Assembly: GCA_964466635.1 (NCBI GenBank)
Contig: CAYXNG010000002.1
Span: forward strand, 1,832-65,831
Length of the DNA: 64,000 bases
From: an uncultured Candidatus Peribacteria bacterium
GTDB lineage: Bacteria; Patescibacteriota; Gracilibacteria; Peribacterales; Peribacteraceae
Direction of reading: 5' to 3'
This document shows positions 22,907 through 57,485 of this stretch, piece after piece. The notes under the pieces are model-generated. The model was not told the origin of the DNA, made no database searches, and saw only the letters and a program-made list of their open reading frames with translations. The position numbers and the translations under genes are program-made. Numbering within the stretch: position 1 is the stretch's first letter; each line of letters starts with the position of its first letter.

Positions 22907-22935
22907 AAAATGGCTCGACGTGGTTCAGGCGGTTC
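22907..22935 (+). repeat. 29-bp exact direct repeat, copy 1 (aaaatggctcgacgtggttcaggcggttc)
   Basis: Identical 29-mer at 30461-30489. Confidence 0.95.
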
Positions 22936-22965
22936 GGATCAACTACGACCTCATGATGGATGTAG

Positions 22966-23430
22966 TCAGAACGTAGTATTCCGAATTTTTTCAGCAAGTT
23001 CAGCTAGATGTTTATCGTCTGCGCGTTTGTAATCATGCGAGGAGATATAACCTTGGTACCTTTCAAAGAAAATATCGACATCAGATTTCATCTGTTGCCA
23101 TTCTTTCATATCCCCAGTCCCATGCATGGGGAAGAGCTTTGTATGAACATGATTTATGCCAAACCCTTCAAAGATCATGCCGGTTCTGCCAACGTCATCG
23201 AATGCTTTATCCAAGAGTTTGCCCACCTTTTTGGATGCAATGACCAAGTCTGAAAGGACATTGTCCGGCAGGTCAAAGGCGTAACTCGAGAAATGCTTCT
23301 TCGGAATGACTACCGAAAAGCCCTCCGTATTCGGGAAAATCGAGAGGAAAGCAATGTGCGAATCATCCTCCCAAATCTTATGGCAAGGGACTTCTCCAGA
23401 GACAATCTTACAGAAGATGCATTCGGACAT
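22966..23430 (-). CDS. HIT (histidine triad) family nucleotide hydrolase/phosphoramidase-like protein
   Basis: CIFCKIVSGEVPCHKIWEDDSHIAFLSIFPNTEGFSVVIPKKH and diverged triad GINHVHTKLFP. Confidence 0.85.
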   Translation of the reverse strand: MSECIFCKIVSGEVPCHKIWEDDSHIAFLSIFPNTEGFSVVIPKKHFSSYAFDLPDNVLSDLVIASKKVGKLLDKAFDDVGRTGMIFEGFGINHVHTKLFPMHGTGDMKEWQQMKSDVDIFFERYQGYISSHDYKRADDKHLAELAEKIRNTTF

Positions 23431-23538: not shown

Positions 23539-23650
23539 TTCTAGAACTCAGGACAGTGTATAGGATGCTCAGGAATATACAGTTACCGTTGCCACTCACA
23601 GCGTAATGTGTAACATTGACATAAGCAATTTATGCTGTTTTAATAGGATT

Positions 23651-24157
23651 ATGAATAGCATAGCAGCCCCAAAGGGTATTCTCATTGAAGGCGTTGAGTG
23701 CGCAGGCAAGACAACCCTGATCAAAGGAATCAGAGACAAAATTGTACCTTGGGATGCCAAGTATCTTGCGCATCAGCCAGGCCAACAGTTCGAACGTTTC
23801 ATGTACGAGTACATGGTTAATAGGAACATTATTTTCAACAGAGGACATTTTAGTGAAGCAATCTATAGCCGACTGTGGGATCGTGAGACGCCTTTCCAGC
23901 CCCATGAATTGCAGGTGCTGAACGATTATGTACGTCGGAATCTGCTGGTGATTTTATGCGATGCAGATACGGATACTTTGGAAAAGCGTTACAGCGAAAG
24001 GAATTATTCCCAGAAAGCAGCTGCGCCTGAACTTGGCAAAATCCGTGATTTGTTCGAGGACCAATTTCAAGGAGTTGAATGTCTGCGGTACACATCGACT
24101 GACCAGCAAAACCTTGAGAAAGTGCTTGAAGAGATTAAGGCAAAAGTCGGTTCCTAA
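23651..24157 (+). CDS. Small P-loop nucleotide/nucleoside-phosphate kinase-like protein
   Basis: Start at MNSIAAPKGILIEGVECAGKTTLIKGIRD (Walker A). About 169 aa. Convergent with the NTP-transferase gene and overlaps it by 4 nt. Confidence 0.6.
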   Translation: MNSIAAPKGILIEGVECAGKTTLIKGIRDKIVPWDAKYLAHQPGQQFERFMYEYMVNRNIIFNRGHFSEAIYSRLWDRETPFQPHELQVLNDYVRRNLLVILCDADTDTLEKRYSERNYSQKAAAPELGKIRDLFEDQFQGVECLRYTSTDQQNLEKVLEEIKAKVGS

Positions 24158-24945
24158 CTTCCAAACAAATCGCAAAACTTACGCATCATACCGTTGCTGA
24201 TCCATTCGTGATAGATACGAAAATCTTCCTCTGTATCCATCTCGATCCAGCCCCTTTGGACTTTAATTGCCTGAACATTCACGCCTTCATCAATCGTGGC
24301 CTGAATCATATCTGTCATATATGCCTGCCTGAAGGACCGTGAATTATACCAACGATCGCTCTTTCCTGATTGTGATTGTTCGTGCTTATCATGCACTTTC
24401 TTAAAGGCCTCCGTCCCGCTTGAGTCAAATTTTAACAATCCGATATAACGTGCATCCATTTCATTTTCTGCAGGTTGTGGTCTGCCTAGTTCAGTGATTT
24501 GTCCTTGCTCATTCAATTGCAGGCTCTCACTATCACTTTGAACGTTCCCCAGCCTCGTTTTCCAGTACTCCTGAAAATTTGTATCGACCGCGACACCGAT
24601 TGAACATTTTGTGTCACGCATACATTCAAGAATTCTCGGCTCGTACACAATATCCGAATAGCAGAGCAGGCAATCTCCCTCAAACTCGGAACGCGCAGCC
24701 ATGAGTGAACCCACCATATTCGTGGTCGCATACTCTGGATTTTCTACATAACGCACATCAGGGTAATTAATCAATTGTCCCATATATCCTCTGACAATCA
24801 CGATGTCATCTACAATCGTGCGAAGGGCTTCCAATTGGTATTCCAATAGAGGTTTACCGTTCAGGGGAACCAAACATTTCGGCTTGTCTTTCGTATGTTC
24901 CCCTAGGCGACTACCCATGCCGGCGGCGAGTACGATGGCTTTCAT
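24154..24945 (-). CDS. Nucleotidyltransferase (sugar-/phospho-substrate cytidylyl/uridylyltransferase fold)
   Basis: MKAIVLAAGMGSRLGEHTKDKPKCLVPLNGKPLLEYQL signature. Confidence 0.8.
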   Translation of the reverse strand: MKAIVLAAGMGSRLGEHTKDKPKCLVPLNGKPLLEYQLEALRTIVDDIVIVRGYMGQLINYPDVRYVENPEYATTNMVGSLMAARSEFEGDCLLCYSDIVYEPRILECMRDTKCSIGVAVDTNFQEYWKTRLGNVQSDSESLQLNEQGQITELGRPQPAENEMDARYIGLLKFDSSGTEAFKKVHDKHEQSQSGKSDRWYNSRSFRQAYMTDMIQATIDEGVNVQAIKVQRGWIEMDTEEDFRIYHEWISNGMMRKFCDLFGS

Positions 24946-25622
24946 TTGTGAGTGAAGTGAGCAATGACACGATGGAGAAGATCTGCATGCGCATTAACAA
25001 AACCAGCATCTGAGCATTTGCGTTCCGGATGCCACATTAATCCAAGAATTGGTAATTTTGTATGCTCGACTGCTTCGATCGCCCCATCATTTGTCACTGC
25101 GCTTCCTATGAGCTCTTTGCCAAGAGTTTTTATACCCAAGCCATGAAAGGAGTTCACAGTCATTTGTTTCTGATTTCCAAGCAACGACCGCAGTAATTCA
25201 GAGGTGAACTGAATTTCATGATCAACAGCTACATGGCTTTTCGGAGAGGCTACTTCAGCGCATGTTCCTTCATAATATGTATTGATGAATTGTAATCCTC
25301 TGCAAATACCTAGAACTGGCTTTCCATCTTCTATGGCGGTGCGCAGAAGCTTCCACTCTGAACGGTCGCGATCAGCACGTGGATCGTCCGAAGTATCGGA
25401 CTCTGATTTTAGAATAATATTGTCTCCTCCAGAGAGGATAAGCATGGCGACATCGCGAATATACTCAGTACAAATTTCAGGTCTGTTGGGGATAAGAACA
25501 GGCTCAAAGCCCTGACGATGTACATAGTCGATAAGATCGTGAGAAAGGGCATCGCGCCACTCGCCATAGTCACTGCCTACCATTCTCATGGAAATGCCGA
25601 TTTTGTTTGGCGATGTACTCAT
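24942..25622 (-). CDS. Class I glutamine amidotransferase-like / peptidase C26 (gamma-glutamyl hydrolase) family protein
   Basis: Nucleophile elbow PVLGICRGLQFIN and LGLMWHPER His motif. Confidence 0.85.
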   Translation of the reverse strand: MSTSPNKIGISMRMVGSDYGEWRDALSHDLIDYVHRQGFEPVLIPNRPEICTEYIRDVAMLILSGGDNIILKSESDTSDDPRADRDRSEWKLLRTAIEDGKPVLGICRGLQFINTYYEGTCAEVASPKSHVAVDHEIQFTSELLRSLLGNQKQMTVNSFHGLGIKTLGKELIGSAVTNDGAIEAVEHTKLPILGLMWHPERKCSDAGFVNAHADLLHRVIAHFTHK

Positions 25623-28036
25623 TGTGATGATCGAATGGAATGATTCGCACAGTCGATTTCTACCAGGGATTGTCCTTTAAGCTGATCGAAGCGTCTACCT
25701 ACTCCAATAGCGGCGGGCAGCCCGAACTCCGCGCAACGAATCGCCATGTGGGATGCAGCTCCTCCATATTTAGTGACAAGTCCTTGGATTTGATGCACGA
25801 ATATCCAGTCATAGCCGGGGTCAGCACTCTCGATGAAAACAATGCGATTCTGTAATTGCTCGTTTGTTTTACCCGCAGTCAAAACTAGTGGACTTCCAAT
25901 GATGTGCTTTTGCGTAATAAAATTTGGCCTGCTTGCAATGAAGCTCACATGCTCGATATCGGAAACATCGGCGATGAGCTCGGGCAAGATGACCAGCTCC
26001 TGCTGTTCATATCTTATGCGTGCGTTGGCACTTGCATTTCTAATGCGACTTATAGCATCAGCATCGGCAGCGCTTCTCATAGACTGAATTGCATTGATGT
26101 CCAAGTAAGATAAATCATCCTTTGTGAGTGAGTGCTGTTGTCCCCATTCGGCAATGAGTTGCAGTGCATCGCTGACATTTTTCGTGAAGAGAAATTTCGC
26201 GTCTTCCCTGCCGACGATGCTCAACTTGGCGAATTCGAGTACATCGTTTACATCCAGTGAAGACCCCGCATTTCTCAAAACAGATTGCATGGCTGCGAGT
26301 TCAGATGCTACCCATTGAAAATCCCTTGCCTCCTCCACATTAGAAGCTATGTCTGATTGAATGGGAGTTGCGGATCCAAAATATAAATCGGTTGCTTCAT
26401 CATAGCGTGGAGATGAGATATCAAAGGTCCCCGGCCTTAAATGCCCATACTTCTGTAGAAATCCCTCAAGCGGCAATTCTCCTTTCCGGACTCGTGTGAG
26501 TTCTTGCCCCATTTGCCCAGCTGCTGTCTCGAATGATTGCAAAAACGCATTATAGGAGGAATCAGAGATGGCACCTTTTGCAACAAAGGATCGAAGCATC
26601 GCATTGCCAACGAATGCCATTCTGGCAATGGCGGAAAAGCCCTTCGTCCCTCTTTTTCTACAATCAGCTACAAGGAATCGAACACATTCCAGCATGTTTT
26701 CCGGTTGTTTCGTTGCAAGTATGGAAGATCTCGCTTTGTCCATTTGAGCCATTTCGGTCATGTAAGACGCGAGATCACCACGACCACCGCGGATTAATGT
26801 CTCGGTGTGTTTGAGTAGGACCCTCCTGACATCAGCGATTTGATGAGGTGACAATCCGGCGGCTTCAAATCGTGGAGTGCAATCGTCGAAAGAAGGAGTG
26901 AAACAATTGGTCGCCACATCAAACTCCACTTTGTCGTGAAGATGTGGTCTTGCCTGGAGGTAATCCAAAGATTCATTGATTATGCGCTCTCTTTGGGAGG
27001 GGCCAATGAGCTTAGGAAGAAGTGAATTGAAACTGTTTCTCACATCCACGTACGGGCGACCTGCTAGGGTGACGAGCAATTTTTCTCCTTCCGGATTGTA
27101 GTAACCAAGCTCTCCTCTCGCTTCTCTCCATGCACTATCCGTAATCAGTGACTCGAACATTGAGAGTGCAAGCGGACGCGGATGACTTCCTACCAATTCT
27201 GCGGGATTCCAGTCCGACATATCACTCAATATTGCCCTGCGTCCTGCGACACCCGCCTTCCGTTCATTGCAGCGGCCAATAGCAATCCTCGTTTCTTCTA
27301 TGACTGACTGAATATTCGACGACTTGAACCGTTCCAGAGCCGCCTTTTGTGCCAAAGGGCGAACCTGAAAAAGGTATAACTGCTGCTTATTGTCGAAAGC
27401 AAATTCGATATCCAAAGCGTTGTTGTCTGCTAGAGACTCAAGTTCTTTGGCACATTCAACCAGCGACGCTAGGCGAGGATCGTTCGGCGGTGCTCCGCCA
27501 TTTCTGTAGATGTAGTGAGTCTGTTGTTCCTCTGAAACTCCACTTGTGATTTTGTCCGTGGCACCAGAATCGTCGTAGTTGATAACGTAGTACGGTGCAC
27601 CGTTTTGTATGTCGCAGGTGAACATGACACCGCAAATTGCAACATCCGTAAGCTGCGGCTGGATTAGAACCTGATGCTTGCCGTCTTTATCTCCGTATGA
27701 TTTCACGACTCGATTGATGGCTTCAAAAATTGCTGATGCATTAGGTCTCTCCACATTGAGTACAGAGTCGAAAGCACCAGCATTCGACGAATCCGCTGTA
27801 TCCTCAGATAAAGCAGAACTGCGAACAATGAGAAGTCCATCACTAAAATGTCTTTGTACATTGCTAACAATATTCGTTGCATACTGCTTCCATTGCTGCA
27901 CCGTAAAGTGGATTTGTGGAAGAATAATCGCGCTTTTCAGGATTGGACGGAGCCTGTCCAGAGTCTCGGCCTTGGTGCCGAGTTCAATGTGCTTTTTGGG
28001 AACATCAGAGCCGATGAGCGGATCTTGCTCAGGCAT
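25619..28036 (-). CDS. PEP-utilising-enzyme family protein (N-terminal PEP/pyruvate-binding ATP-grasp, C-terminal swivelling phosphohistidine domain)
   Basis: 805 aa. N-terminal GTKAETLDRL...IVRSSALSEDT. C-terminal GLVTKYGGAASHMAIRCAEFGLPAAIGVG. Confidence 0.8.
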   Translation of the reverse strand: MPEQDPLIGSDVPKKHIELGTKAETLDRLRPILKSAIILPQIHFTVQQWKQYATNIVSNVQRHFSDGLLIVRSSALSEDTADSSNAGAFDSVLNVERPNASAIFEAINRVVKSYGDKDGKHQVLIQPQLTDVAICGVMFTCDIQNGAPYYVINYDDSGATDKITSGVSEEQQTHYIYRNGGAPPNDPRLASLVECAKELESLADNNALDIEFAFDNKQQLYLFQVRPLAQKAALERFKSSNIQSVIEETRIAIGRCNERKAGVAGRRAILSDMSDWNPAELVGSHPRPLALSMFESLITDSAWREARGELGYYNPEGEKLLVTLAGRPYVDVRNSFNSLLPKLIGPSQRERIINESLDYLQARPHLHDKVEFDVATNCFTPSFDDCTPRFEAAGLSPHQIADVRRVLLKHTETLIRGGRGDLASYMTEMAQMDKARSSILATKQPENMLECVRFLVADCRKRGTKGFSAIARMAFVGNAMLRSFVAKGAISDSSYNAFLQSFETAAGQMGQELTRVRKGELPLEGFLQKYGHLRPGTFDISSPRYDEATDLYFGSATPIQSDIASNVEEARDFQWVASELAAMQSVLRNAGSSLDVNDVLEFAKLSIVGREDAKFLFTKNVSDALQLIAEWGQQHSLTKDDLSYLDINAIQSMRSAADADAISRIRNASANARIRYEQQELVILPELIADVSDIEHVSFIASRPNFITQKHIIGSPLVLTAGKTNEQLQNRIVFIESADPGYDWIFVHQIQGLVTKYGGAASHMAIRCAEFGLPAAIGVGRRFDQLKGQSLVEIDCANHSIRSSQ

Positions 28037-28081: not shown

Positions 28082-28633
28082 TTACTCGCCGTCCTCCACG
28101 ATATATTCCCATCCTGGCCTCCAAGCCTTCGTATGCCTCCAGTCTTCTTCCATAGCCTGCTCCCAAGATTTTCCTTTTAACACCACATCAAGAGCCAGCT
28201 GAGGGCCTTGATGAGCCACTATCGCTATGTGTTTGCCCTTATAGGCTTTCTTTATGAATTCGATAAAATCTGCAATTCTTCGCTCGATATCTTTGTAGCT
28301 CTCGCCGCCCGGAAAAGGCTGATCTATGTAATTTGTGAGATTCTGCTTAAAGTCGTCAGCGGGTTTTTGCGTGAAATCCCCGTAGTTTGCCTCACGCAAT
28401 CTTTCATCAACAACTATCGGACAGCGACCTTCAAAAGCAAGATGGGCAGAATCAATGGCTCTTTGAAGGTCAGAGCAAAAAACAACATCGAATTTTTGTG
28501 GTGCCTGAGTGCCAAGCTCCTTTGCCTGTTTTTTCCCTAACTCGGACAACTCGCCATGAGCCCATCCCGTAGCGAGATCCTGCTCGTTATCCGTTGTCGT
28601 GCCGTGGACGAAATACGTGATTTTCAGAGGCAT
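28082..28633 (-). CDS. Histidine phosphatase (phosphoglycerate-mutase-like) superfamily protein
   Basis: Start at MPLKITYFVHGTTTDNE. VVFCSDLQRAIDSA and IVAHQGPQLAL motifs. Confidence 0.7.
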   Translation of the reverse strand: MPLKITYFVHGTTTDNEQDLATGWAHGELSELGKKQAKELGTQAPQKFDVVFCSDLQRAIDSAHLAFEGRCPIVVDERLREANYGDFTQKPADDFKQNLTNYIDQPFPGGESYKDIERRIADFIEFIKKAYKGKHIAIVAHQGPQLALDVVLKGKSWEQAMEEDWRHTKAWRPGWEYIVEDGE

Positions 28634-28662
28634 TGGTGATGAATCATAGCGTACTTTGCTCA

Positions 28663-28703
28663 CTAATAAAACAGTACCCTGCACACTTTCGCGTGCAGGG
28701 TAC
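28663..28703 (-). terminator. Rho-independent terminator downstream of the HD gene
   Basis: Perfect 11-bp inverted repeat gtaccctgcac/gtgcagggtac (28674-28703) with an 8-nt loop, followed on the minus strand by TGTTTTATT. Confidence 0.6.
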
Positions 28704-28729
28704 CGAGCTGACGATCGTCGTGCATCTTC

Positions 28730-29368
28730 TCACGACGCTGCGGCGGCCATCGCAACCGACAGTTCATCCGGACCGAAGGACAGGTACTGGAAGAGTTCGC
28801 GCTCGAGGGTTTTCTCCTCTTGCAGCTTCTGCTCCCACCAGCCCTCGCCCTTGTCGATCCACTTGTGCTTGTAGGCCTCACGGAGATACGCGAGCCGCTC
28901 ATCGAACGAGGTGATCTGATCGAATTGCACGCGCCAGTCGGCGTAGTGCAGGATCTTCAGTTCGATGCAGTCGGTCAGGTACGTCGGGTTTCCCGTCGAG
29001 CCGATCTTCGAGACGAAGACGGCGAATTCGGGGAATTCATCACGGAACATCTCGGCGGCCACCAGCGTCTCGTGCATGCCGGTGAACCGCGTGCGGAGTT
29101 GCTTCCACACCTCAATCTCGCGTTCGCTTGGGGTGTAACCCCATTCGGGACGCGCTTCGAGCGTGGGAAGCGATGCGGTCTTGAACGCGTCATGGAGACG
29201 GCAGCCGATGGTGACGAGTTCGATGTCCACCTCAGCTCCCCCCTCGCGCATCTTCTGCGCAAGGAACGTTCCGACCTCTGCGACTTTGGCGCAGTGCCTA
29301 CGGATCGGCTCCGGAACCGCATAGCGGTCCAGGAGATCGTCGCAGTACTGCTCTGAAGGAATCTTCAT
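28730..29368 (-). CDS. HD-domain metal-dependent phosphohydrolase
   Basis: IGCRLHDAFK (HD dyad) and LHYADWRV. Start chosen at MKIPSEQ (29368), which has GAGG upstream. Confidence 0.75.
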   Translation of the reverse strand: MKIPSEQYCDDLLDRYAVPEPIRRHCAKVAEVGTFLAQKMREGGAEVDIELVTIGCRLHDAFKTASLPTLEARPEWGYTPSEREIEVWKQLRTRFTGMHETLVAAEMFRDEFPEFAVFVSKIGSTGNPTYLTDCIELKILHYADWRVQFDQITSFDERLAYLREAYKHKWIDKGEGWWEQKLQEEKTLERELFQYLSFGPDELSVAMAAAAS

Positions 29369-29477
29369 GGCTGACCTCACTTTCTGGTTAGGGTACGGGT
29401 TGCGATGCTTGAAAAGAACGCCAGCTCTACTTCCCCAGCATCATGCTGAGGAATGTGCAGTCTACATACCTAAATTA

Positions 29478-29534: not shown

Positions 29535-30362
29535 ATGAATCAGTCATCAAATGAATTGAATAAAGATTTGCGAACTTTGATTTGTTGCGGTCGCAGCGGG
29601 TCTACAGCTCTGCTGCACTGTCTTTCGCAAAGCGACAGCGTGGATGCACGTTATCAGCTTATTAAGACAAGCGTCAGGGATGCAGTACGCTCACAAGCAA
29701 TACCGCCCGCAGAAAGTGACACTGGTGACTACGCAGAAGACTATTCCATTTATTATGGACAGAGCGATCCTAGTAAAACAGTGGTTCTTAAAGAAACCAT
29801 CGGTTCATATAACATTCCAGAATGTGACTATTCTGTTTTTCCCAAGTCAGAAAAAGATCAAGCGATTCGCGCTACCCGTCCCGTGTTTCTTGTACGGGAT
29901 CCTCTGGAAGTAATGGACGCAAAAAAACGGAGAGGCTGGAAATCTACTTTGGAGAATTCTGTGAGGGCTTATGGAAATGTTTTCAAGGAATACCAACATG
30001 CCAAATCTGTAGCTCCGGAAAGCGTATTGAGCTGTACGTATCAACACTTAATGAGCGATCCAGAAAAAACTATTCGCAGAGTTTGCGATCATTGGGGAGT
30101 TAGATATGAAGATGTTATGTTGAAATGGCGATATCCATTCCCATCTGCAATTAAAGGCGGCAAGGATTTTTATGAATTGGGAGCCACCGGCGCATTTGAT
30201 GGAATTGCAAAAAGTGAAACACTAAAAGCGAAAGAGTACCAAGGCTTAACGCTAGACGTTGCCTCGATACTACGAATGACGAGAGGCGATCTCAATAGGG
30301 TTTACGACTATTATGAAAAAATGAAAGTGGATGCAGATCGAGATTTCGGCGAAACTGTCTAA
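29535..30362 (+). CDS. Sulfotransferase-fold (Stf0-like) protein
   Basis: P-loop-like 5'-phosphosulfate-binding motif LICCGRSGSTALL and 3'-phosphate-binding-like VFLVRDPLEV. Confidence 0.6.
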   Translation: MNQSSNELNKDLRTLICCGRSGSTALLHCLSQSDSVDARYQLIKTSVRDAVRSQAIPPAESDTGDYAEDYSIYYGQSDPSKTVVLKETIGSYNIPECDYSVFPKSEKDQAIRATRPVFLVRDPLEVMDAKKRRGWKSTLENSVRAYGNVFKEYQHAKSVAPESVLSCTYQHLMSDPEKTIRRVCDHWGVRYEDVMLKWRYPFPSAIKGGKDFYELGATGAFDGIAKSETLKAKEYQGLTLDVASILRMTRGDLNRVYDYYEKMKVDADRDFGETV

Positions 30363-30460: not shown

Positions 30461-30489
30461 AAAATGGCTCGACGTGGTTCAGGCGGTTC
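30461..30489 (+). repeat. 29-bp exact direct repeat, copy 2
   Basis: Identical to 22907-22935. In this copy aatggctc pairs with the downstream gagccatt to form a hairpin. Confidence 0.95.
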
Positions 30490-30615
30490 AGAGCCATTAT
30501 GATTTGATGTCGCAGTTGTATACATAGCTTCTAAGCGCTCAAATTGCCTTTTAAGATAAATATTTGGTTCTATACTTCAGTTCATGTCAGTTTTTAAATT
30601 TAAAGCTCAAATTGC

Positions 30616-33045
30616 ATGGTAAATGTGATTCAGCTGACTGCTGGCTCTATAGCATCACGTCCATGGAAGAAGAGGCCAGGCTTTGATCGTAACCGTGTTG
30701 TAGAGCCAGGGGACTATGGTTTTCAAGCCGGCAATTTAAATGCTTGTTTTAGCAGATTTAAAAATCAAAGCGAATTGGTAAGGGAAGGAATTAATCGTTA
30801 TTTGGAAATTCAACTATTCCCTGAACCTCAAGAACTTAAGGAAGATTATTTCAGGTATCTGGGTGAGCAGTATGCTTTGACCCTTAAGAAAATTGAGAGT
30901 GCCGGGATGCATTCAAGGGCACATTTTCAAATTGAAAATCTAGACTTGCTTCTCAGAAATCTAGAGCAAGTAATACGCGAATTTGAGGGTTATTCTCAGG
31001 AGCAAATTGCTGCTACAGATTTCACAGCAGGCCGTATTAAATTATGGCGCTACTTTCAGCTAAGCACGAGTCAGACAAAAAATCGTGTAGAACCTGTTGA
31101 AGATTTTGATGCACTCAGGTTGAAAGTGGATTTTATAGAAAGCGCCCCAGACTTTAGTAGTGTTGTTTCAGCTGCGGCTATCTCCTCAGGCATTGATGCG
31201 ACTCTTTATCCAAACGGCATCATTAGCATAAAACAAATACGAGAGAATGGGGCACGTAGAGTAGCCGATTTTGCTGAACGCCTTTCACAATATGACAAAA
31301 TACATTTCATAAAATTGGATGATTTTGTTTCAACAATTGAATCTCCTCTTCAGGGTGGGCGATTGGAAGAACGAGAATATGTAATACAGAGAATTGCCCC
31401 AGACGCTCCTGTGGTTGCTGTTATAGATACTGGTGTGCAGAGTCACATTTTGACAAATAGCTTCCTGACAGATGATGGATTGGATTATAGATCGGGTGTT
31501 AGCGATCCCAGAATTGCTGCCCCTTTTGTAGATAACGTTGGCCATGGAACTGCTGTCGCAGCAGAAATTGCTTATGGCAAAAGTATTGAAGAATATCTAA
31601 TTGCCAAGAATGAGGAATATCTCATTCCACTGGTAAAAATTTTTCCAGTGCGGATAGCTGATACAACAAAGAATTTTACTGTGCCTTACGATAAGATTTT
31701 CGACATTAATGGACACTTTGCAGAAGCTGTAAGACGTTACAATATCAAGCTTGTAAATATTAGTTTCGCAAGCACTCAACAAAAATCATTTGAAGAAGAA
31801 AAAATCTCTGAGGCTGCAAACTTAATGGATAGATTTGCCAAGGAACTAGGTGTTACATTTATAGTTTGCGTTGGAAATATTGATTTTGGGAAGCTCGAAA
31901 GTTTAATAGCAGCAGATAGTAGTTTTCTGTTTTTTCAGAGACCCAATGGCTATGGGGAGCCAACTGCTAATCCTCTTTTTAAATGCATAAATATAGGTGC
32001 GCCTTCTGATTTACTCTCAGGAGTGGTGGTTGGCAGTTGTTATCCGCAAAAGTCTAAGTTTGTTGTATCCACATTCAATCGATCTTATTCATTTGATAGT
32101 GTTCGTAATGGGTATTCAAAGCCAGATGTGTTGGCAATTGGCGGAGGGGATGCACCAGTTGATTTAGAATCTTTGCCAGCGCGTGTCTGCAACTCCAGTC
32201 AACGGGTAAGTGTTTTATCGCAGCACGAATCTTTTTTAGCACAGCAAATTGGTACAAGTTTTTCAACTCCAAGGGTTACCAGAGCACTCGCCATCGCTAT
32301 AATCAAATATCCTGACATCTCTCCCGAAACTTTGAAGTGTCTTTTTCTTCATAAAGCCAGCAACTACATGGCTCCAGATAAAAAATATGGCATGAATTTT
32401 GGAACAGTAAATTTACAAAGACGCTCAATAGAATTTGCAGATATTTATAAAGGATTTGGCAGCTTGACCGAGGTTAATGAGTCTGATTTTTTTGAAGATT
32501 CTGAGGATGAAATTTCTTTCATCATCGAGGGCGCTGTACCAGCTGAAAAGATGATCTCTTATCGAGTACCTTTGGCTGCAATGTTAGGTGACGGCACAAC
32601 GGCCAGAACCAACAAAATGGAACTTAAGCTTTCAATTTGTACACTTCCCCGGAGTACTAGAACTGGTGAGGTATCTTTAAAATCAGCAAATCCCTTTCAT
32701 GTGGCAGCATTCATGCACGTTAATAGTTTGGTTCCTACTCGCACAATGATTTTTGCGGGTAGGCAATATCGCGATCAGTGCATACGTAGCAATACTCCAG
32801 GTATAATACTTGGTTGGACCAGTGATTATCAGGTGCGCCATTTTCCAACATTTTCTATACAATCGAAAATGTATAGGAAGGATAAGTTGGCAGCACTGTT
32901 AGGAAGTGGAGATTCGGCGACAATTACCGTAAGAGGTCTTTCAGAATCTGCTGCGCAGACTACCGCTAAGTTTGCGATAGTCTTTTCAGTCAAAGACCTT
33001 GGTGCAACAGGCGAAATTAGGAACCGTATCAGAATCAACGTATAA
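30616..33045 (+). CDS. S8 (subtilisin-like) serine peptidase with unknown N-terminal (~265 aa) and C-terminal (~220 aa) domains
   Basis: Catalytic triad motifs VVAVIDTGV (Asp), DNVGHGTAVAAEI (His), GTSFSTPRVTRALA (Ser), and oxyanion Asn in VCVGNID. No signal peptide. Confidence 0.9.
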   Translation: MVNVIQLTAGSIASRPWKKRPGFDRNRVVEPGDYGFQAGNLNACFSRFKNQSELVREGINRYLEIQLFPEPQELKEDYFRYLGEQYALTLKKIESAGMHSRAHFQIENLDLLLRNLEQVIREFEGYSQEQIAATDFTAGRIKLWRYFQLSTSQTKNRVEPVEDFDALRLKVDFIESAPDFSSVVSAAAISSGIDATLYPNGIISIKQIRENGARRVADFAERLSQYDKIHFIKLDDFVSTIESPLQGGRLEEREYVIQRIAPDAPVVAVIDTGVQSHILTNSFLTDDGLDYRSGVSDPRIAAPFVDNVGHGTAVAAEIAYGKSIEEYLIAKNEEYLIPLVKIFPVRIADTTKNFTVPYDKIFDINGHFAEAVRRYNIKLVNISFASTQQKSFEEEKISEAANLMDRFAKELGVTFIVCVGNIDFGKLESLIAADSSFLFFQRPNGYGEPTANPLFKCINIGAPSDLLSGVVVGSCYPQKSKFVVSTFNRSYSFDSVRNGYSKPDVLAIGGGDAPVDLESLPARVCNSSQRVSVLSQHESFLAQQIGTSFSTPRVTRALAIAIIKYPDISPETLKCLFLHKASNYMAPDKKYGMNFGTVNLQRRSIEFADIYKGFGSLTEVNESDFFEDSEDEISFIIEGAVPAEKMISYRVPLAAMLGDGTTARTNKMELKLSICTLPRSTRTGEVSLKSANPFHVAAFMHVNSLVPTRTMIFAGRQYRDQCIRSNTPGIILGWTSDYQVRHFPTFSIQSKMYRKDKLAALLGSGDSATITVRGLSESAAQTTAKFAIVFSVKDLGATGEIRNRIRINV

Positions 33046-33053
33046 TCTTCCCC

Positions 33054-33941
33054 ATGAAGGCAATGGTTCTACAGAAAAAATCATCATCCAATGGCAGCTA
33101 TTACGATAGTCTTCAATCATTGTTGGGTAATGAGAAGAAACTGGAAACATTTAAGTCGCAGGGAAAAGAGCAAGATTTGTTCGTTAGTGATAGAGCATAT
33201 GAAATAATTAATTCTAAGGTTAAATTCCAAGATGTCGTCCAAACACCTTCATTGAAAAGTGACTTCACAAATTTAATAAATGAATTTTTGCACAAGGAAA
33301 CTTTGAAAAGTTACGGAATAAATGCCGACAATAAAATTATCTTCTTCGGTCCATCTGGCTGTGGCAAAACGATGTCAGCAATGGCTCTTGCTAACAAGTT
33401 AAATAAAAAGCTTTTTCTCGTAAATTTAGCCACCATTGTAGACAGTAGCTTAGGTAAAACTAGTAGTAACGTTGCCGAAATAGTAGCGGAGGCTGCGTCT
33501 CAGAATGGTATTATTTTCTTTGATGAATTTGATGCTTTGGCCAAAATGAGAAGCGATGAGAATGACCACGGTGAGATGAAGAGAGTGGCTAGCTCGATTA
33601 TTCAGATTTTGGATTTCCTGAATGAAGATTCAGTATTCATTGCTGCAACTAATCATATTGATTTGATTGATAAGGCTATCTTACGAAGGTTTGGTAAAAA
33701 GATTTCATTTGATATGCCAACGCCTAAGTTGCTTGAAATCTATATTGAAAAAATCATCAAACCAACCAACTTGAAAATGTCAAAATCAGTCATGAAGGCC
33801 ATTGCAACTGAACTACAAGGCTTATCGTTTGCTGAGGCCAGAGATGCTTTCTTGGCGAAATTAAAAAGATACTTGATTGCTAAAAGTAAGAATAATAAGG
33901 CATCTCTAAAAAGTATTTCATCTGACATTTTGAAAGTCTGA
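33054..33941 (+). CDS. Classical AAA+ ATPase
   Basis: Walker A FFGPSGCGKT, Walker B IIFFDEFDAL, sensor-1 FIAATNH, Arg finger region KAILRRF. Starts 8 nt after the S8 gene stop. Confidence 0.9.
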   Translation: MKAMVLQKKSSSNGSYYDSLQSLLGNEKKLETFKSQGKEQDLFVSDRAYEIINSKVKFQDVVQTPSLKSDFTNLINEFLHKETLKSYGINADNKIIFFGPSGCGKTMSAMALANKLNKKLFLVNLATIVDSSLGKTSSNVAEIVAEAASQNGIIFFDEFDALAKMRSDENDHGEMKRVASSIIQILDFLNEDSVFIAATNHIDLIDKAILRRFGKKISFDMPTPKLLEIYIEKIIKPTNLKMSKSVMKAIATELQGLSFAEARDAFLAKLKRYLIAKSKNNKASLKSISSDILKV

Positions 33942-34183: not shown

Positions 34184-34561
34184 ATGTCCAATTCAACAGT
34201 TGGTAAGTTGAAAAAATGCCCTCACTGCGCCGAGGAAATCCTCGCTGATGCGAAGAAATGTAAACACTGCGGAGAATTTCTCGACGGCAATTATCCCGCT
34301 GGCCATGGAAGAGGCCCTGTACGTTCATGGAGTCCCGGCGTGGCTGCCGTGCTTAGCGTCTTCGTTCCAGGGTTGGGGCAGATCTACAAAGGAGACATTG
34401 CTATTGGCATTGTAATCTTCATTGTCACCGCGATCGGCTATGTCGTTTTCATTCTTCCGGGCCTCCTCATTCACATTTACGCTGTCAGTACTGCTTACTC
34501 CAAGCCAGCTCCCGGTGACAGGAAGCCAACTCATCCAACTAGAGGGCTTACCTCTTCGTGA
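34184..34561 (+). CDS. Zinc-ribbon plus TM2-type small membrane protein
   Basis: KCPHCAEEILADAKKCKHCGEF followed by VAAVLSVFVPGLGQIYKGDIAIGIVIFIVTAIGYV. Confidence 0.65.
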   Translation: MSNSTVGKLKKCPHCAEEILADAKKCKHCGEFLDGNYPAGHGRGPVRSWSPGVAAVLSVFVPGLGQIYKGDIAIGIVIFIVTAIGYVVFILPGLLIHIYAVSTAYSKPAPGDRKPTHPTRGLTSS

Positions 34562-35360: not shown

Positions 35361-36980
35361 ATGAAGTATTTCCTCTACTGCCGAAAGTCATCTGATCGCG
35401 ATGATAAACAGGTGCTGAGCATTGAAGCTCAGCAGAGAAAGATGCTTGAAATAGCTGAGAAATTGCATCTTGAAATAGTTGCTGTTTTCCTTGAGCAGAA
35501 GTCTGCTTATAAAACAGGAAGACCGCAGTTCAATGAGATGATGGATAGACTTGAGAAAGGAGAGGCAGATGCCATTCTCACGTATCACCTCACGCGCCTA
35601 GCGCGTAATAGCTTTGATGGCGGAAGAATCGTCTATGCCTTGGACGATAAAGTCATCAAGGAAATTCGGACAGAGGACAGTGTTTTCACCAACATCTCTG
35701 ATGAAAAGTTCATCATGAATATTCACTTTGCGATGTCGAAGAAAAGCTCAGACGACACCAGTCAGTTTGTCCGGCGTGATATCGAAACCAAATTGAAGAA
35801 AGGAGAGTTTCCCGGAGTCGCACCACTTGGTTATCTAAATATCGATAAAAGAGGAACGATAGCCGGACGGCATTATTCGCAGGAGCGACAGAAGATGCTA
35901 TTTGATCTGAACCGACCGCTCAGGCGTGAGGAGATCGACCCGATTAACGGGCCAATTGTGAAGAAGATATTTGAAGAGGCAAGCAAGGGCGTGAAGTCGC
36001 TGAAAGCATTGCGTGAATTGAGTTGGGAACTGGGTCTACGTTCCAAGAACGGTAACAAGCTGCCTGAGGCGACGGTATATGCCATTCTCACCAATCCGTA
36101 CTACTACGGAGTGATCCGCATGAACGGAAAGATCTACGCAGAGAATATTCAGCATGAACCTCTCATTAGTAAACAACTTTTTGATCGAGTGTTACAGCTG
36201 TTACATCAACGTGGCAAAGGCGGAGGTGGCGCACAGCGTCATTTCTTCCCCTACACGGGTCTCTTCAAATGTGGCGAATGCGGCTGTGGTATTACGGCGG
36301 AAATACAAAAGGGACATATTTACTATCACTGCACTCACCGAAAGGGATACTGTAGCCAGCGAACGTGGATATCAGAAGAAAATATGGAGGAACAAATTCG
36401 AGGAGTAATCGACAGGCTTGTAATTCCTGCATCATTCGTAGAGTTTGCATTTAAGAAGCTCAAAGATTCGCACAAAATAGAGGCACAGGTGCAGAACACT
36501 GCGCGTGCGAATACAGAGAGAAGATATGGTCAGCTGAAAGCGAAGTTAGATGCCCTCTTGGAACTAAAGCTATCTCCCAATAATACGAAAGGGGAGCTGC
36601 TGAACGATCAGGAATACATGGACCGTAAGTCAACGATCCAGAATGAAATGCACGAACTGGAACAGCAACGGGAATCATTCAAGAAGCAAGCTGACACTTG
36701 GTTGCAAGACTGCGAGAACTTCATCTCCTTCACACAGGAGTTAGGGCAAAGATACGGCATGGTCAGTTTAGAACGTAAGAAGGAGTTGATGTTCCTGCTT
36801 TGTTCGAAAGGTACCGTAACCAACGGTTCTTTGGCTTTCTCTTACCGAGAGCCGTTCGCGACACTCGCTGAATTCCCCTTAGCCGGTAAAGGCCGGTTCG
36901 AACCGCCTTCGTCGCTTTCTGAAAAGAAGAAGTCCGATTTGTTTACAAAGTGGCTCCCCCGACTGGATTCGAACCAGTAA
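35361..36980 (+). CDS. Large serine recombinase (resolvase N-domain, recombinase domain, zinc ribbon, coiled coil)
   Basis: YCRKSSDRDDKQVLSIEAQ (catalytic Ser region), LTRLARNSFDG, CGECGCGITAE...YYHCTH zinc ribbon. The last 30 nt overlap tRNA-Asn on the opposite strand. Confidence 0.9.
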   Translation: MKYFLYCRKSSDRDDKQVLSIEAQQRKMLEIAEKLHLEIVAVFLEQKSAYKTGRPQFNEMMDRLEKGEADAILTYHLTRLARNSFDGGRIVYALDDKVIKEIRTEDSVFTNISDEKFIMNIHFAMSKKSSDDTSQFVRRDIETKLKKGEFPGVAPLGYLNIDKRGTIAGRHYSQERQKMLFDLNRPLRREEIDPINGPIVKKIFEEASKGVKSLKALRELSWELGLRSKNGNKLPEATVYAILTNPYYYGVIRMNGKIYAENIQHEPLISKQLFDRVLQLLHQRGKGGGGAQRHFFPYTGLFKCGECGCGITAEIQKGHIYYHCTHRKGYCSQRTWISEENMEEQIRGVIDRLVIPASFVEFAFKKLKDSHKIEAQVQNTARANTERRYGQLKAKLDALLELKLSPNNTKGELLNDQEYMDRKSTIQNEMHELEQQRESFKKQADTWLQDCENFISFTQELGQRYGMVSLERKKELMFLLCSKGTVTNGSLAFSYREPFATLAEFPLAGKGRFEPPSSLSEKKKSDLFTKWLPRLDSNQ

Positions 36981-37025
36981 CCCTCTCGTTAACAGCGAGA
37001 TGCTCTACCATTGAGCTACAGGGGA
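36951..37025 (-). tRNA. tRNA-Asn (anticodon GTT), CCA encoded
   Basis: The minus strand reads TCCCCTG TA GCTC AATGGTA GAGC A TCTCG CTGTTAA CGAGA GGGTT ACTGG TTCGAAT CCAGT CGGGGGA G CCA. This gives a full cloverleaf. It begins with U and has discriminator G, as in E. coli tRNA-Asn. Confidence 0.9.
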
Positions 37026-57090: not shown

Positions 57091-57485
57091 TGGTGGAGAT
57101 GCCGGGATTCGAACCCGGGTCCAACGTGTACACATGGTGTCCATACGATCATGTTCCATTCAATTCTCGCATCCGCATAAGAATGGAACCAAGAAGCGGA
57201 GCGAGTGATGACGCGGAATAGTGAACAGCCACTGCGTCACATGACTGTCACTCTCACTAATGACGTTTCATCCCGTCAGTGAGAATCGCGGGCGAAACGT
57301 GGTTCCAAAAAGGGAACCTATTAGGCGAACGTCAGAGCTGGCACGAATGCCGGGCTCTGGAAGCGAGCGCCAAGGAAATTGCGTTTTGCAATTATTGGTG
57401 CAACAAGTGGGTATCGGGAACCGTTGCCATCCCGGATCGAGACAAACGCATATGCAGAATCACGCTGTCAAAGCCTGTCATCCCC
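57091..57485 (-). ncRNA. ssrA: tmRNA (SsrA)
   Basis: Minus-strand 5' end GGGGATGACAGGCTTTGACAGCG. 3' end GGACCCGGGTTCGAATCCCGGCATCTCCACCA. The acceptor pairing includes G3:U. Internal tag frame ends in TAA TAG. Confidence 0.85.

Follow-up and report, generated by a model that had tools for sequence, protein, structure and literature searches.

A sulfotransferase-fold protein in a repeat-flanked phosphoramidate cassette of a Candidatus Peribacteria bacterium: a candidate phosphoramidyl transferase

The eight-gene cassette

A 64-kb stretch of DNA from an uncultured Candidatus Peribacteria bacterium (assembly GCA_964466635.1, contig CAYXNG010000002.1), in the following called the window, encodes a sulfotransferase-fold protein of 275 amino acids (aa) next to genes resembling those of phosphoramidate biosynthesis. 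In its initial annotation this protein was proposed to be a phosphoramidyl transferase, and the present work deals with this proposal. The closest known pathway is that for O-methyl phosphoramidate (MeOPN) in Campylobacter jejuni. Its enzymes are the glutamine kinase Cj1418, the cytidylyltransferase Cj1416, the hydrolase Cj1417, the kinase Cj1415 and the transferases Cj1421 and Cj1422, and in Campylobacter the steps of the first four are established. The following features are present at the locus (positions are those of the window):

22907 to 22955 (+): left copy of a 49-nucleotide (nt) direct repeat with a 29-nt perfect core
22966 to 23430 (-): HIT-family protein, 154 aa, candidate nucleotide phosphoramidase (Pfam HIT, E=2.6e-9)
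23606 to 24157 (+): P-loop kinase, 183 aa, here called Kin183 (weak AAA_28 and dTMP kinase matches; best match in the Protein Data Bank (PDB) YorR, E=0.0016)
24154 to 24945 (-): Cj1416-like nucleotidyl (cytidylyl) transferase, 263 aa (NTP_transf_3, E=1.4e-17)
24942 to 25622 (-): Cj1417-like class-I glutamine amidotransferase-fold hydrolase (GATase), 226 aa (Peptidase_C26, E=8e-34)
25619 to 28036 (-): Cj1418-like L-glutamine kinase, 805 aa, with a phosphoenolpyruvate (PEP)-utilising swivelling domain (NCBIfam PRK05849)
28082 to 28684 (-): histidine phosphatase, 200 aa, which may act as 3'-phosphatase on the spent nucleotide (His_Phos_1, E=2.4e-30)
28730 to 29380 (-): HD-domain phosphohydrolase, 216 aa (weak HD and DVU_1551-family matches)
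29535 to 30362 (+): sulfotransferase-fold protein, 275 aa, candidate phosphoramidyl transferase (translation of the open reading frame (ORF), Pfam, family alignment, AlphaFold2, Foldseek)
30461 to 30509 (+): right copy of the 49-nt direct repeat, pairing with the copy at 22907 to 22955

The repeat has exactly two copies in the window, with none expected by chance, and these enclose precisely the eight genes from the HIT gene through the sulfotransferase-fold gene. The eight genes thus behave as a single inserted cassette of about 7.5 kb, and the flanking repeat suggests an insertion by site-specific recombination or a target-site duplication. Polysaccharide, capsule and methyltransferase genes are missing from the cassette. 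Its sole transferase-type gene is the one for the sulfotransferase-fold protein, divergent from the module operon on the minus strand, and the earlier remark that a transferase role appears otherwise unfilled in the cluster agrees with this for the cassette. PADLOC matched none of the eight genes, and its matches were limited to the adjoining IetS and IetA.

That phosphoramidate genes lie nearby, as had been stated, is confirmed. The glutamine kinase-like protein reaches 843 bits with PRK05849 (cut-off 501), a model which presumably covers Cj1418, and some of its homologues are named 'glutamine kinase' in the JGI annotation. For the GATase the best NCBIfam match is gamma-glutamyl-CDP-amidate hydrolase (CDP, cytidine diphosphate) with 108.7 bits, under the cut-off of 250, and the nucleotidyltransferase has CTP:phosphocholine cytidylyltransferase as its best PDB match. 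PDB sequence searches with the neighbour proteins did not recover the structures of Cj1415 to Cj1418. A correction concerns the kinase, which is a different P-loop enzyme. Its Walker A motif (EGVECAGKTT) and its weak matches to AAA_28, dTMP kinase and the prophage protein YorR point to the thymidylate/deoxynucleoside-kinase group. With the adenosine 5'-phosphosulfate (APS)-kinase-like family of other glutamine-kinase loci 25 residues around the P-loop align and nothing further, and as the homology is confined to the P-loop, a Cj1415-type (APS-kinase family) identity for Kin183 was rejected. Searches of the 64 kb with tblastn and hidden Markov models (HMMs) found no CysD, CysN, APS kinase, APS-kinase-like or TagF-like genes, and Pfam found none of them in ten further ORFs; the absence of sulfate-activation genes nearby, noted initially, is hereby confirmed.

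The HIT protein (22966 to 23430) has the motif N-H-V-H-T-K (HxHxK), not the classical HxHxH triad, and the phosphoramidase role considered for it goes back to what is known of Hint-type HIT enzymes. Between the HD and the histidine phosphatase genes a GC-rich hairpin with a 15-bp stem, followed by a T-run, is found on the minus strand (28672 to 28705); it could be a terminator or attenuator within the presumed operon.

The sulfotransferase-fold protein and its homologues

The ORF at 29535 to 30362 consists of 275 codons free of stops on translation, as first described. The public annotation appears to have the gene 14 codons shorter (261 aa; region 29535 to 29577). Homologues conserve residues 5-14 and the structural model has a strand at residues 12-18, which makes the 275-aa start the more likely correct one. 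Motifs for binding of 3'-phosphoadenosine-5'-phosphosulfate (PAPS) had been recognised and called Stf0-type. Both motifs are present: residues 17-24 read CCGRSGST, and residues 120-126 read VRDPLEV. The Stf0 label was imprecise and has been dropped, the matching Pfam profile being Sulfotransfer_3 (PF13469; E=2.9e-10; 41.2 bits, the cut-off being 27) with an alignment limited to residues 117-193; apart from it the Pfam scan gave a weak Sulfotransfer_1 match only and no Stf0 match. No match was obtained in NCBIfam or PADLOC.

An AlphaFold2 model based on an alignment of 24 relatives has a mean predicted local distance difference test (pLDDT) of 94.3 and a predicted template modelling score (pTM) of 0.92. 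All 50 of the 50 PDB matches listed by Foldseek have the sulfotransferase fold, nearly all of them crystals with bound 3'-phosphoadenosine-5'-phosphate (PAP); among these matches E goes down to 4.7e-6, with TM values of 0.45-0.56 and identities of 11-16%. The neighbours comprise heparan sulfate 3-O-sulfotransferases (3-OST), the sulfotransferase domains of CurM and olefin synthase, and tyrosylprotein sulfotransferases (TPST). The 275-aa protein has a sulfotransferase fold with donor-site motifs, in agreement with the PAPS-type fold assigned to it at the outset. The 5'-phosphosulfate-binding loop is formed by R20-S21-G22-S23-T24, with G22 nearly invariant among 24 family members. In the 3'-phosphate motif R121 is invariant in the same set; the serine at +8 is an alanine in the window clade, near K130, K131, R132 and R133. 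Invariant or nearly so are G22, Q41, K44, R48, K86, E87, G90, R121, P123 and W198 among others, a pattern which, judged from sequence, would fit a catalytically competent transferase.

The family is very rare, with 7 clusters among 5.8 billion and 163 representatives at E<=0.001 among 1.84 billion. Close relatives were found neither in GTDB species genomes nor in IMG/VR, phage records gave no match and plasmids one weak match only. The JGI metagenome scan for close relatives returned a single, interrupted copy. In the metagenomic copy L010 (28-255 and 1572-1694; 82-88% identity) an insertion of about 1.3 kb follows residue 76.

The closest homologues (60-75% identity) adjoin module genes in two further metagenomic contigs, each in a different gene order. 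On the 24-kb contig L001 the homologue P0003 is 60% identical to the 275-aa protein, the module from the HD to the sulfotransferase gene is conserved with 59-78% identity, and the sulfotransferase-fold gene adjoins the kinase gene and not the HD gene. In L012 a homologue with 71-75% identity stands tail-to-tail with a histidine phosphatase gene, which is a third arrangement; no other module gene is visible there. A close homologue of the cassette histidine phosphatase accompanies the sulfotransferase-fold gene at all three loci (window, L001, L012). The preservation of the linkage through rearrangement argues for a functional tie of the gene to the module. An unrelated passenger merely adjoining the module could be imagined from the divergent transcription and from a family that is rare and poorly sampled. 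However, the linkage is retained in three gene orders, the gene lies inside the repeat-bracketed cassette and the association is broad across phyla (see below), so that this explanation, already disfavoured, is very improbable.

Two more loci, L006 (10001-15111) and L030 (8809-13802), carry a five-gene operon with the order glutamine kinase, GATase, nucleotidyltransferase, Kin183-type kinase and HD. Their HD proteins are closely related to that of the window (64% identity in L006, 320 bits in L030), and the HD gene is the best-conserved accessory of this module type (64-78% identity in L001 and L006; L030 has it as well). The Kin183-type kinase is strictly conserved in all four (window, L001, L006, L030). 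L001 also encodes a serine recombinase, ParB-methyltransferase genes and an S24 repressor-like gene, and the surroundings of L006 and L030 are variable or mobile, one of the two operons adjoining a gene for a CHAT-TPR protein and the other a resolvase gene.

From these operons it appears that the five-gene core may make a product alone. The cassette product could be a free small molecule, such as a toxic or signalling cytidine phosphoramidate nucleotide, for which the sulfotransferase-fold protein would be an accessory binding, tailoring or detoxifying protein. A core of glutamine kinase, GATase, nucleotidyltransferase, kinase and HD without the gene in L006 and L030, the cassette without polysaccharide genes, and the mobile or defence-like surroundings of all four loci of the module type are in line with it. 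HIT immunity enzymes cleave phosphoramidate nucleotide antibiotics, and the cassette HIT protein resembles them. On the other hand, residues of catalytic transferase type are conserved, and the constant pairing with a histidine phosphatase homologue fits a transferase releasing a 3'-phosphonucleotide. We regard the free molecule as quite unlikely.

Beyond the right repeat the window continues with the following features:

30616 to 33941: IetS-like S8 protease (809 aa) and IetA-like AAA ATPase (295 aa), directly after the cassette (PADLOC)
34184 to 34561: zinc-ribbon ORF
35361 to 36980: large serine recombinase, 539 aa, its 3' end overlapping tRNA-Asn on the opposite strand
36951 to 37025: tRNA-Asn, on the strand opposite to the serine recombinase

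IetS and IetA are a known anti-phage gene pair and lie in the lowest-GC stretch of the window. From about 55%, the G+C content drops to 46-50% in the cassette and further to 39% in the IetS/IetA-like genes. Due to this drop and to the setting with IetS/IetA, serine recombinase and tRNA-Asn this whole segment is regarded as an acquired island, of which the serine recombinase and tRNA-Asn are probably the right end. Further downstream, a tmRNA gene with the tag peptide AKRNFLGARFQSPAFVPALTFA is located at 57091 to 57485 (-).

Glutamine-kinase loci in other genomes

Co-occurrence with Cj1418-like genes, which the initial annotation had named as a check, is positive at two levels, among the close homologues described above and among species. 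One genome per species was scanned with the glutamine-kinase alignment; at least 597 places matched, and the best 80 loci were analysed, 43 of them with complete 10-kb flanks. With an HMM iterated from the window family, sulfotransferase-fold genes no more than 10 kb from the glutamine kinase were detected in 23 of the 80 loci; of the 43 with full flanks, 17 have one. Genomes contain a few sulfotransferase genes at most, and about 1% would be expected for a random 20-gene neighbourhood (a baseline that is estimated, not computed) against the 29-40% observed. Pfam assigned 19 of the 20 candidate ORFs scanned to a sulfotransferase family, several of them weakly or below the curated cut-off. The 24 sulfotransferase-fold genes lie mostly close to the glutamine kinase (20 within 5 kb, 17 co-oriented, 7 without an intervening called gene), and several more are separated from it by pathway genes alone. 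Examples are the orders formyltransferase, glutamine kinase, GATase, nucleotidyltransferase, sulfotransferase-fold gene in L013 and glutamine kinase, GATase, nucleotidyltransferase, methyltransferase, sulfotransferase-fold gene in L070; the compact arrangements of L065, L067, L078 and L088 have gaps of 8-24 nt.

Next to the glutamine kinase, 73 of the 80 loci have the GATase and 71 have the cytidylyltransferase. Methyltransferases dependent on S-adenosylmethionine are enriched where a sulfotransferase-fold gene is present (10/23 against 6/57 other loci, p=0.0018), as expected for an O-methyl phosphoramidate product. APS-kinase-like genes (PRK05541, Cj1415-type) were found in 41 of the 80 loci; among the 23 with a sulfotransferase-fold gene, 15 have one. 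In most of the sulfotransferase domains the RSG(S/T) loop and the R(D/N)P...S motif, both of which bind the 3'-phosphorylated nucleotide, are kept, and fusions to TPR repeats, an AMP-binding domain or a PglD_N domain occur. Comparison of the recurrent neighbour families with the sulfotransferase family by hhalign showed no hidden sulfotransferase-like family except family 25. The surveyed loci belong to Lachnospiraceae, Cohnella, Paenibacillus, Planctomycetota, Magnetococcales, Nomurabacteria, Woesearchaeota and Nanoarchaeota. Loci with a sulfotransferase-fold gene also exist in the last three groups (L024, L044, L063), for which PAPS synthesis is not generally known.

Other transferases stand at the same place in part of the loci. 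TagF-like CDP-glycerol-type phosphotransferases are present in 14 of the 80; in no locus do they occur together with a sulfotransferase-fold gene (14 and 23 loci with one of them alone), which suggests that the two are alternatives for one role. On a plasmid of Vibrio alfacsensis (L094, 5478-14015) a TagF-like phosphotransferase comes after the trio of glutamine kinase, cytidylyltransferase and amidohydrolase, with cysD and cysN adjoining, and no sulfotransferase-fold gene was found beside the glutamine kinase there. A plasmid of Agrobacterium vitis S4 (L096, 8908-13987) has the trio, then a LysE exporter and a CDP-alcohol phosphatidyltransferase, and looks like a small-molecule pathway. A third recurrent partner, a family of 404-444 aa without a Pfam match, is present in 14 of the 80 loci (L018 8051-9325, L088 8436-9767 and 12 others), always co-oriented with the glutamine kinase and at most 4.5 kb away. 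ATP sulfurylase is not among the recurrent families of the 80 loci.

In two capsule-type loci carrying a fused cytidylyltransferase-glutamine kinase an HD-like protein is encoded directly after a second cytidylyltransferase (L007 11054-11992, L008 15942-16748). As they are present in these loci too, HD hydrolases are a recurrent companion of the phosphoramidate pathway.

Phosphoramidyl transfer and its alternatives

Compared with the C. jejuni MeOPN pathway, the cassette has the same trio of glutamine kinase, cytidylyltransferase and amidohydrolase in syntenic order, and a kinase and one candidate transferase are encoded alongside. In contrast, its kinase is outside the APS-kinase family, capsule genes and a methyltransferase are missing, HD, histidine phosphatase and HIT proteins are added, and the genes are found on a mobile cassette within a defence-type island and not in a capsule locus. 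The attachment of the phosphoramidate is the uncharacterised step of the MeOPN pathway and is known in Campylobacter from knockouts alone (PMC11800397; PMC12096443). The transferases Cj1421 and Cj1422 (592-603 aa) are assigned by knockout phenotypes only (PMC11800397; PMC12096443; PMC13317227). A protein search that started from the 599-aa sulfotransferase-domain protein of the glutamine-kinase locus L062 gave no Campylobacter protein. In the open full-text literature no paper was found that links MeOPN transfer, glutamine kinase or cytidine diphosphoramidate with a sulfotransferase or PAPS.

That the 275-aa protein is the group-transfer enzyme of the mobile eight-gene phosphoramidate cassette has, in our view, about an even chance of being right. 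The cassette data support a phosphoramidyl transferase with a PAPS-like cytidine donor, short of proof: gene linkage, fold and motifs agree with the initial proposal, and the Cj1415-type kinase that it placed behind the 3'-phospho donor is not present. According to the family assignments, glutamine kinase, cytidylyltransferase and amidohydrolase would produce cytidine diphosphoramidate, whose ribose Kin183 would then phosphorylate to the PAPS-like 3'-phospho-CDP-amidate, provided that the kinase has this regiochemistry. The sulfotransferase-fold protein might bind this donor via its 5'-phospho-X loop (R20-S-G-S-T) and the 3'-phosphate arginine R121 and catalyse an in-line transfer of the phosphoramidyl group to a hydroxyl or amine of the acceptor, which is probably not a polysaccharide; the conserved K86/E87 are the likely base. 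Removal of the 3'-phosphate from spent cytidine 3',5'-bisphosphate (pCp) would fall to the histidine phosphatase or to the HD hydrolase. By analogy the histidine phosphatase could clear this by-product as CysQ clears PAP, and the HIT protein may hydrolyse stray nucleotide phosphoramidates.

CDP-dependent phosphotransferases (TagF-like enzymes and CDP-alcohol phosphatidyltransferases) take the same place behind the trio, both in 14 of the 80 loci and on the Vibrio and Agrobacterium plasmids, and are therefore likely to be an alternative way of phosphoramidate delivery. They differ by an unrelated fold, and they would use CDP-amidate directly, releasing cytidine monophosphate (CMP) with no need of a 3'-phosphate, whereas the sulfotransferase-fold enzymes would use the 3'-phosphorylated form, a structural analogue of PAPS. 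The most economical view is that the glutamine-kinase trio is a donor-making module which pairs with alternative group-transfer enzymes.

Alternatively, the protein may be an ordinary PAPS-dependent sulfotransferase of the same pathway, supplied with PAPS by housekeeping genes elsewhere in the genome. It could sulfate the same acceptor or else the phosphoramidate nitrogen, giving an N-sulfo-phosphoramidate; phaseolotoxin carries an N-sulfo-diaminophosphinyl group. With PAPS-dependent Sulfotransfer_3-type enzymes (3-OST, the CurM domain, TPST) the 275-aa protein has in common the fold, the 5'-phosphosulfate loop and the 3'-phosphate arginine. It differs from them in its identity of 11-16% to any solved structure, in the alanine replacing the usual 3'-phosphate serine and in its genomic partner, which is a phosphoramidate-donor module and not sulfate activation.

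Several observations weigh against phosphoramidyl transfer. All structural matches listed are PAP/PAPS enzymes, and the conserved donor-site residues are identical in module-linked and unlinked relatives, so that one donor, PAPS, for the whole family would be the simplest assumption. The distant family members (34-49% identity; L003, L004, L005, L011) do not adjoin the module, three of these four contigs being shorter than 2.5 kb and L003 a 20-kb stretch of a 262-kb contig. More than 15 sequence families are represented among the sulfotransferase-fold proteins encoded near glutamine kinases, which would require many independent donor switches and is most simply understood if all of them retain PAPS. 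That the window cluster makes 3'-phospho-CDP-amidate is assumed, because Kin183 is not of the Cj1415 type and has only the P-loop in common with Cj1415, and the serine that binds the 3'-phosphate in relatives is the one exchanged for alanine in the window clade. APS-kinase-like genes were considered as companions of the sulfotransferase-fold genes; they show a weak tendency of this kind, short of significance (odds ratio 2.2, p=0.14, 80 loci). No sulfotransferase-fold gene lies within 10 kb of the five-gene operons of L006 and L030, and TagF-like enzymes, the CDP-alcohol phosphatidyltransferase and the family of 404-444 aa are other candidate partners. The adjoining CysD and CysN genes at one glutamine-kinase locus (L094) would also suit PAPS, although the sulfotransferase-fold gene is missing there.

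PAPS as the donor has difficulties of its own. No sulfate-activation gene is present in the 64 kb or among the recurrent families of the 80 loci; this is weak evidence, since these are usually housekeeping genes. The cassette would be left without an enzyme that attaches the phosphoramidate, and the mutual exclusion with TagF-like phosphotransferases is hard to reconcile with a mere extra decoration. Furthermore, loci with sulfotransferase-fold genes exist in lineages with reduced genomes (L024, L044, L063). Taken together, sulfation of the acceptor or of the phosphoramidate nitrogen is the main alternative and a serious one, and less likely than phosphoramidyl transfer.

Phosphoramidyl transfer by the 275-aa protein is a plausible and directly testable idea with comparative data in its support. 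A more general version is put forward tentatively, with less than even confidence: sulfotransferase-fold proteins of bacteria and archaea would be a widespread, so far unrecognised group of phosphoramidyl transferases, with 3'-phospho-CDP-amidate in the part that PAPS plays for sulfotransferases. The window would then contain a minimal, repeat-bracketed and horizontally mobile version, in which donor synthesis is combined with a transferase, a phosphatase for the spent nucleotide and a phosphoramidase; it would be directed to a non-polysaccharide target and possibly be part of a defence or antagonism island.

New in the present case is that the phosphoramidate pathway comes with another kinase, additional hydrolases and a candidate transferase of the sulfotransferase fold, and that it is carried by a mobile cassette outside any polysaccharide locus. 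If the proposed role is true, it would mean a new reaction chemistry for the well-studied sulfotransferase fold and would provide a directly testable transferase candidate in hundreds of species. Many 'sulfotransferases' annotated beside genes for a 'PEP-utilising enzyme' would then be misnamed, and the mobile, polysaccharide-free cassette hints at targets of phosphoramidylation beyond capsules.

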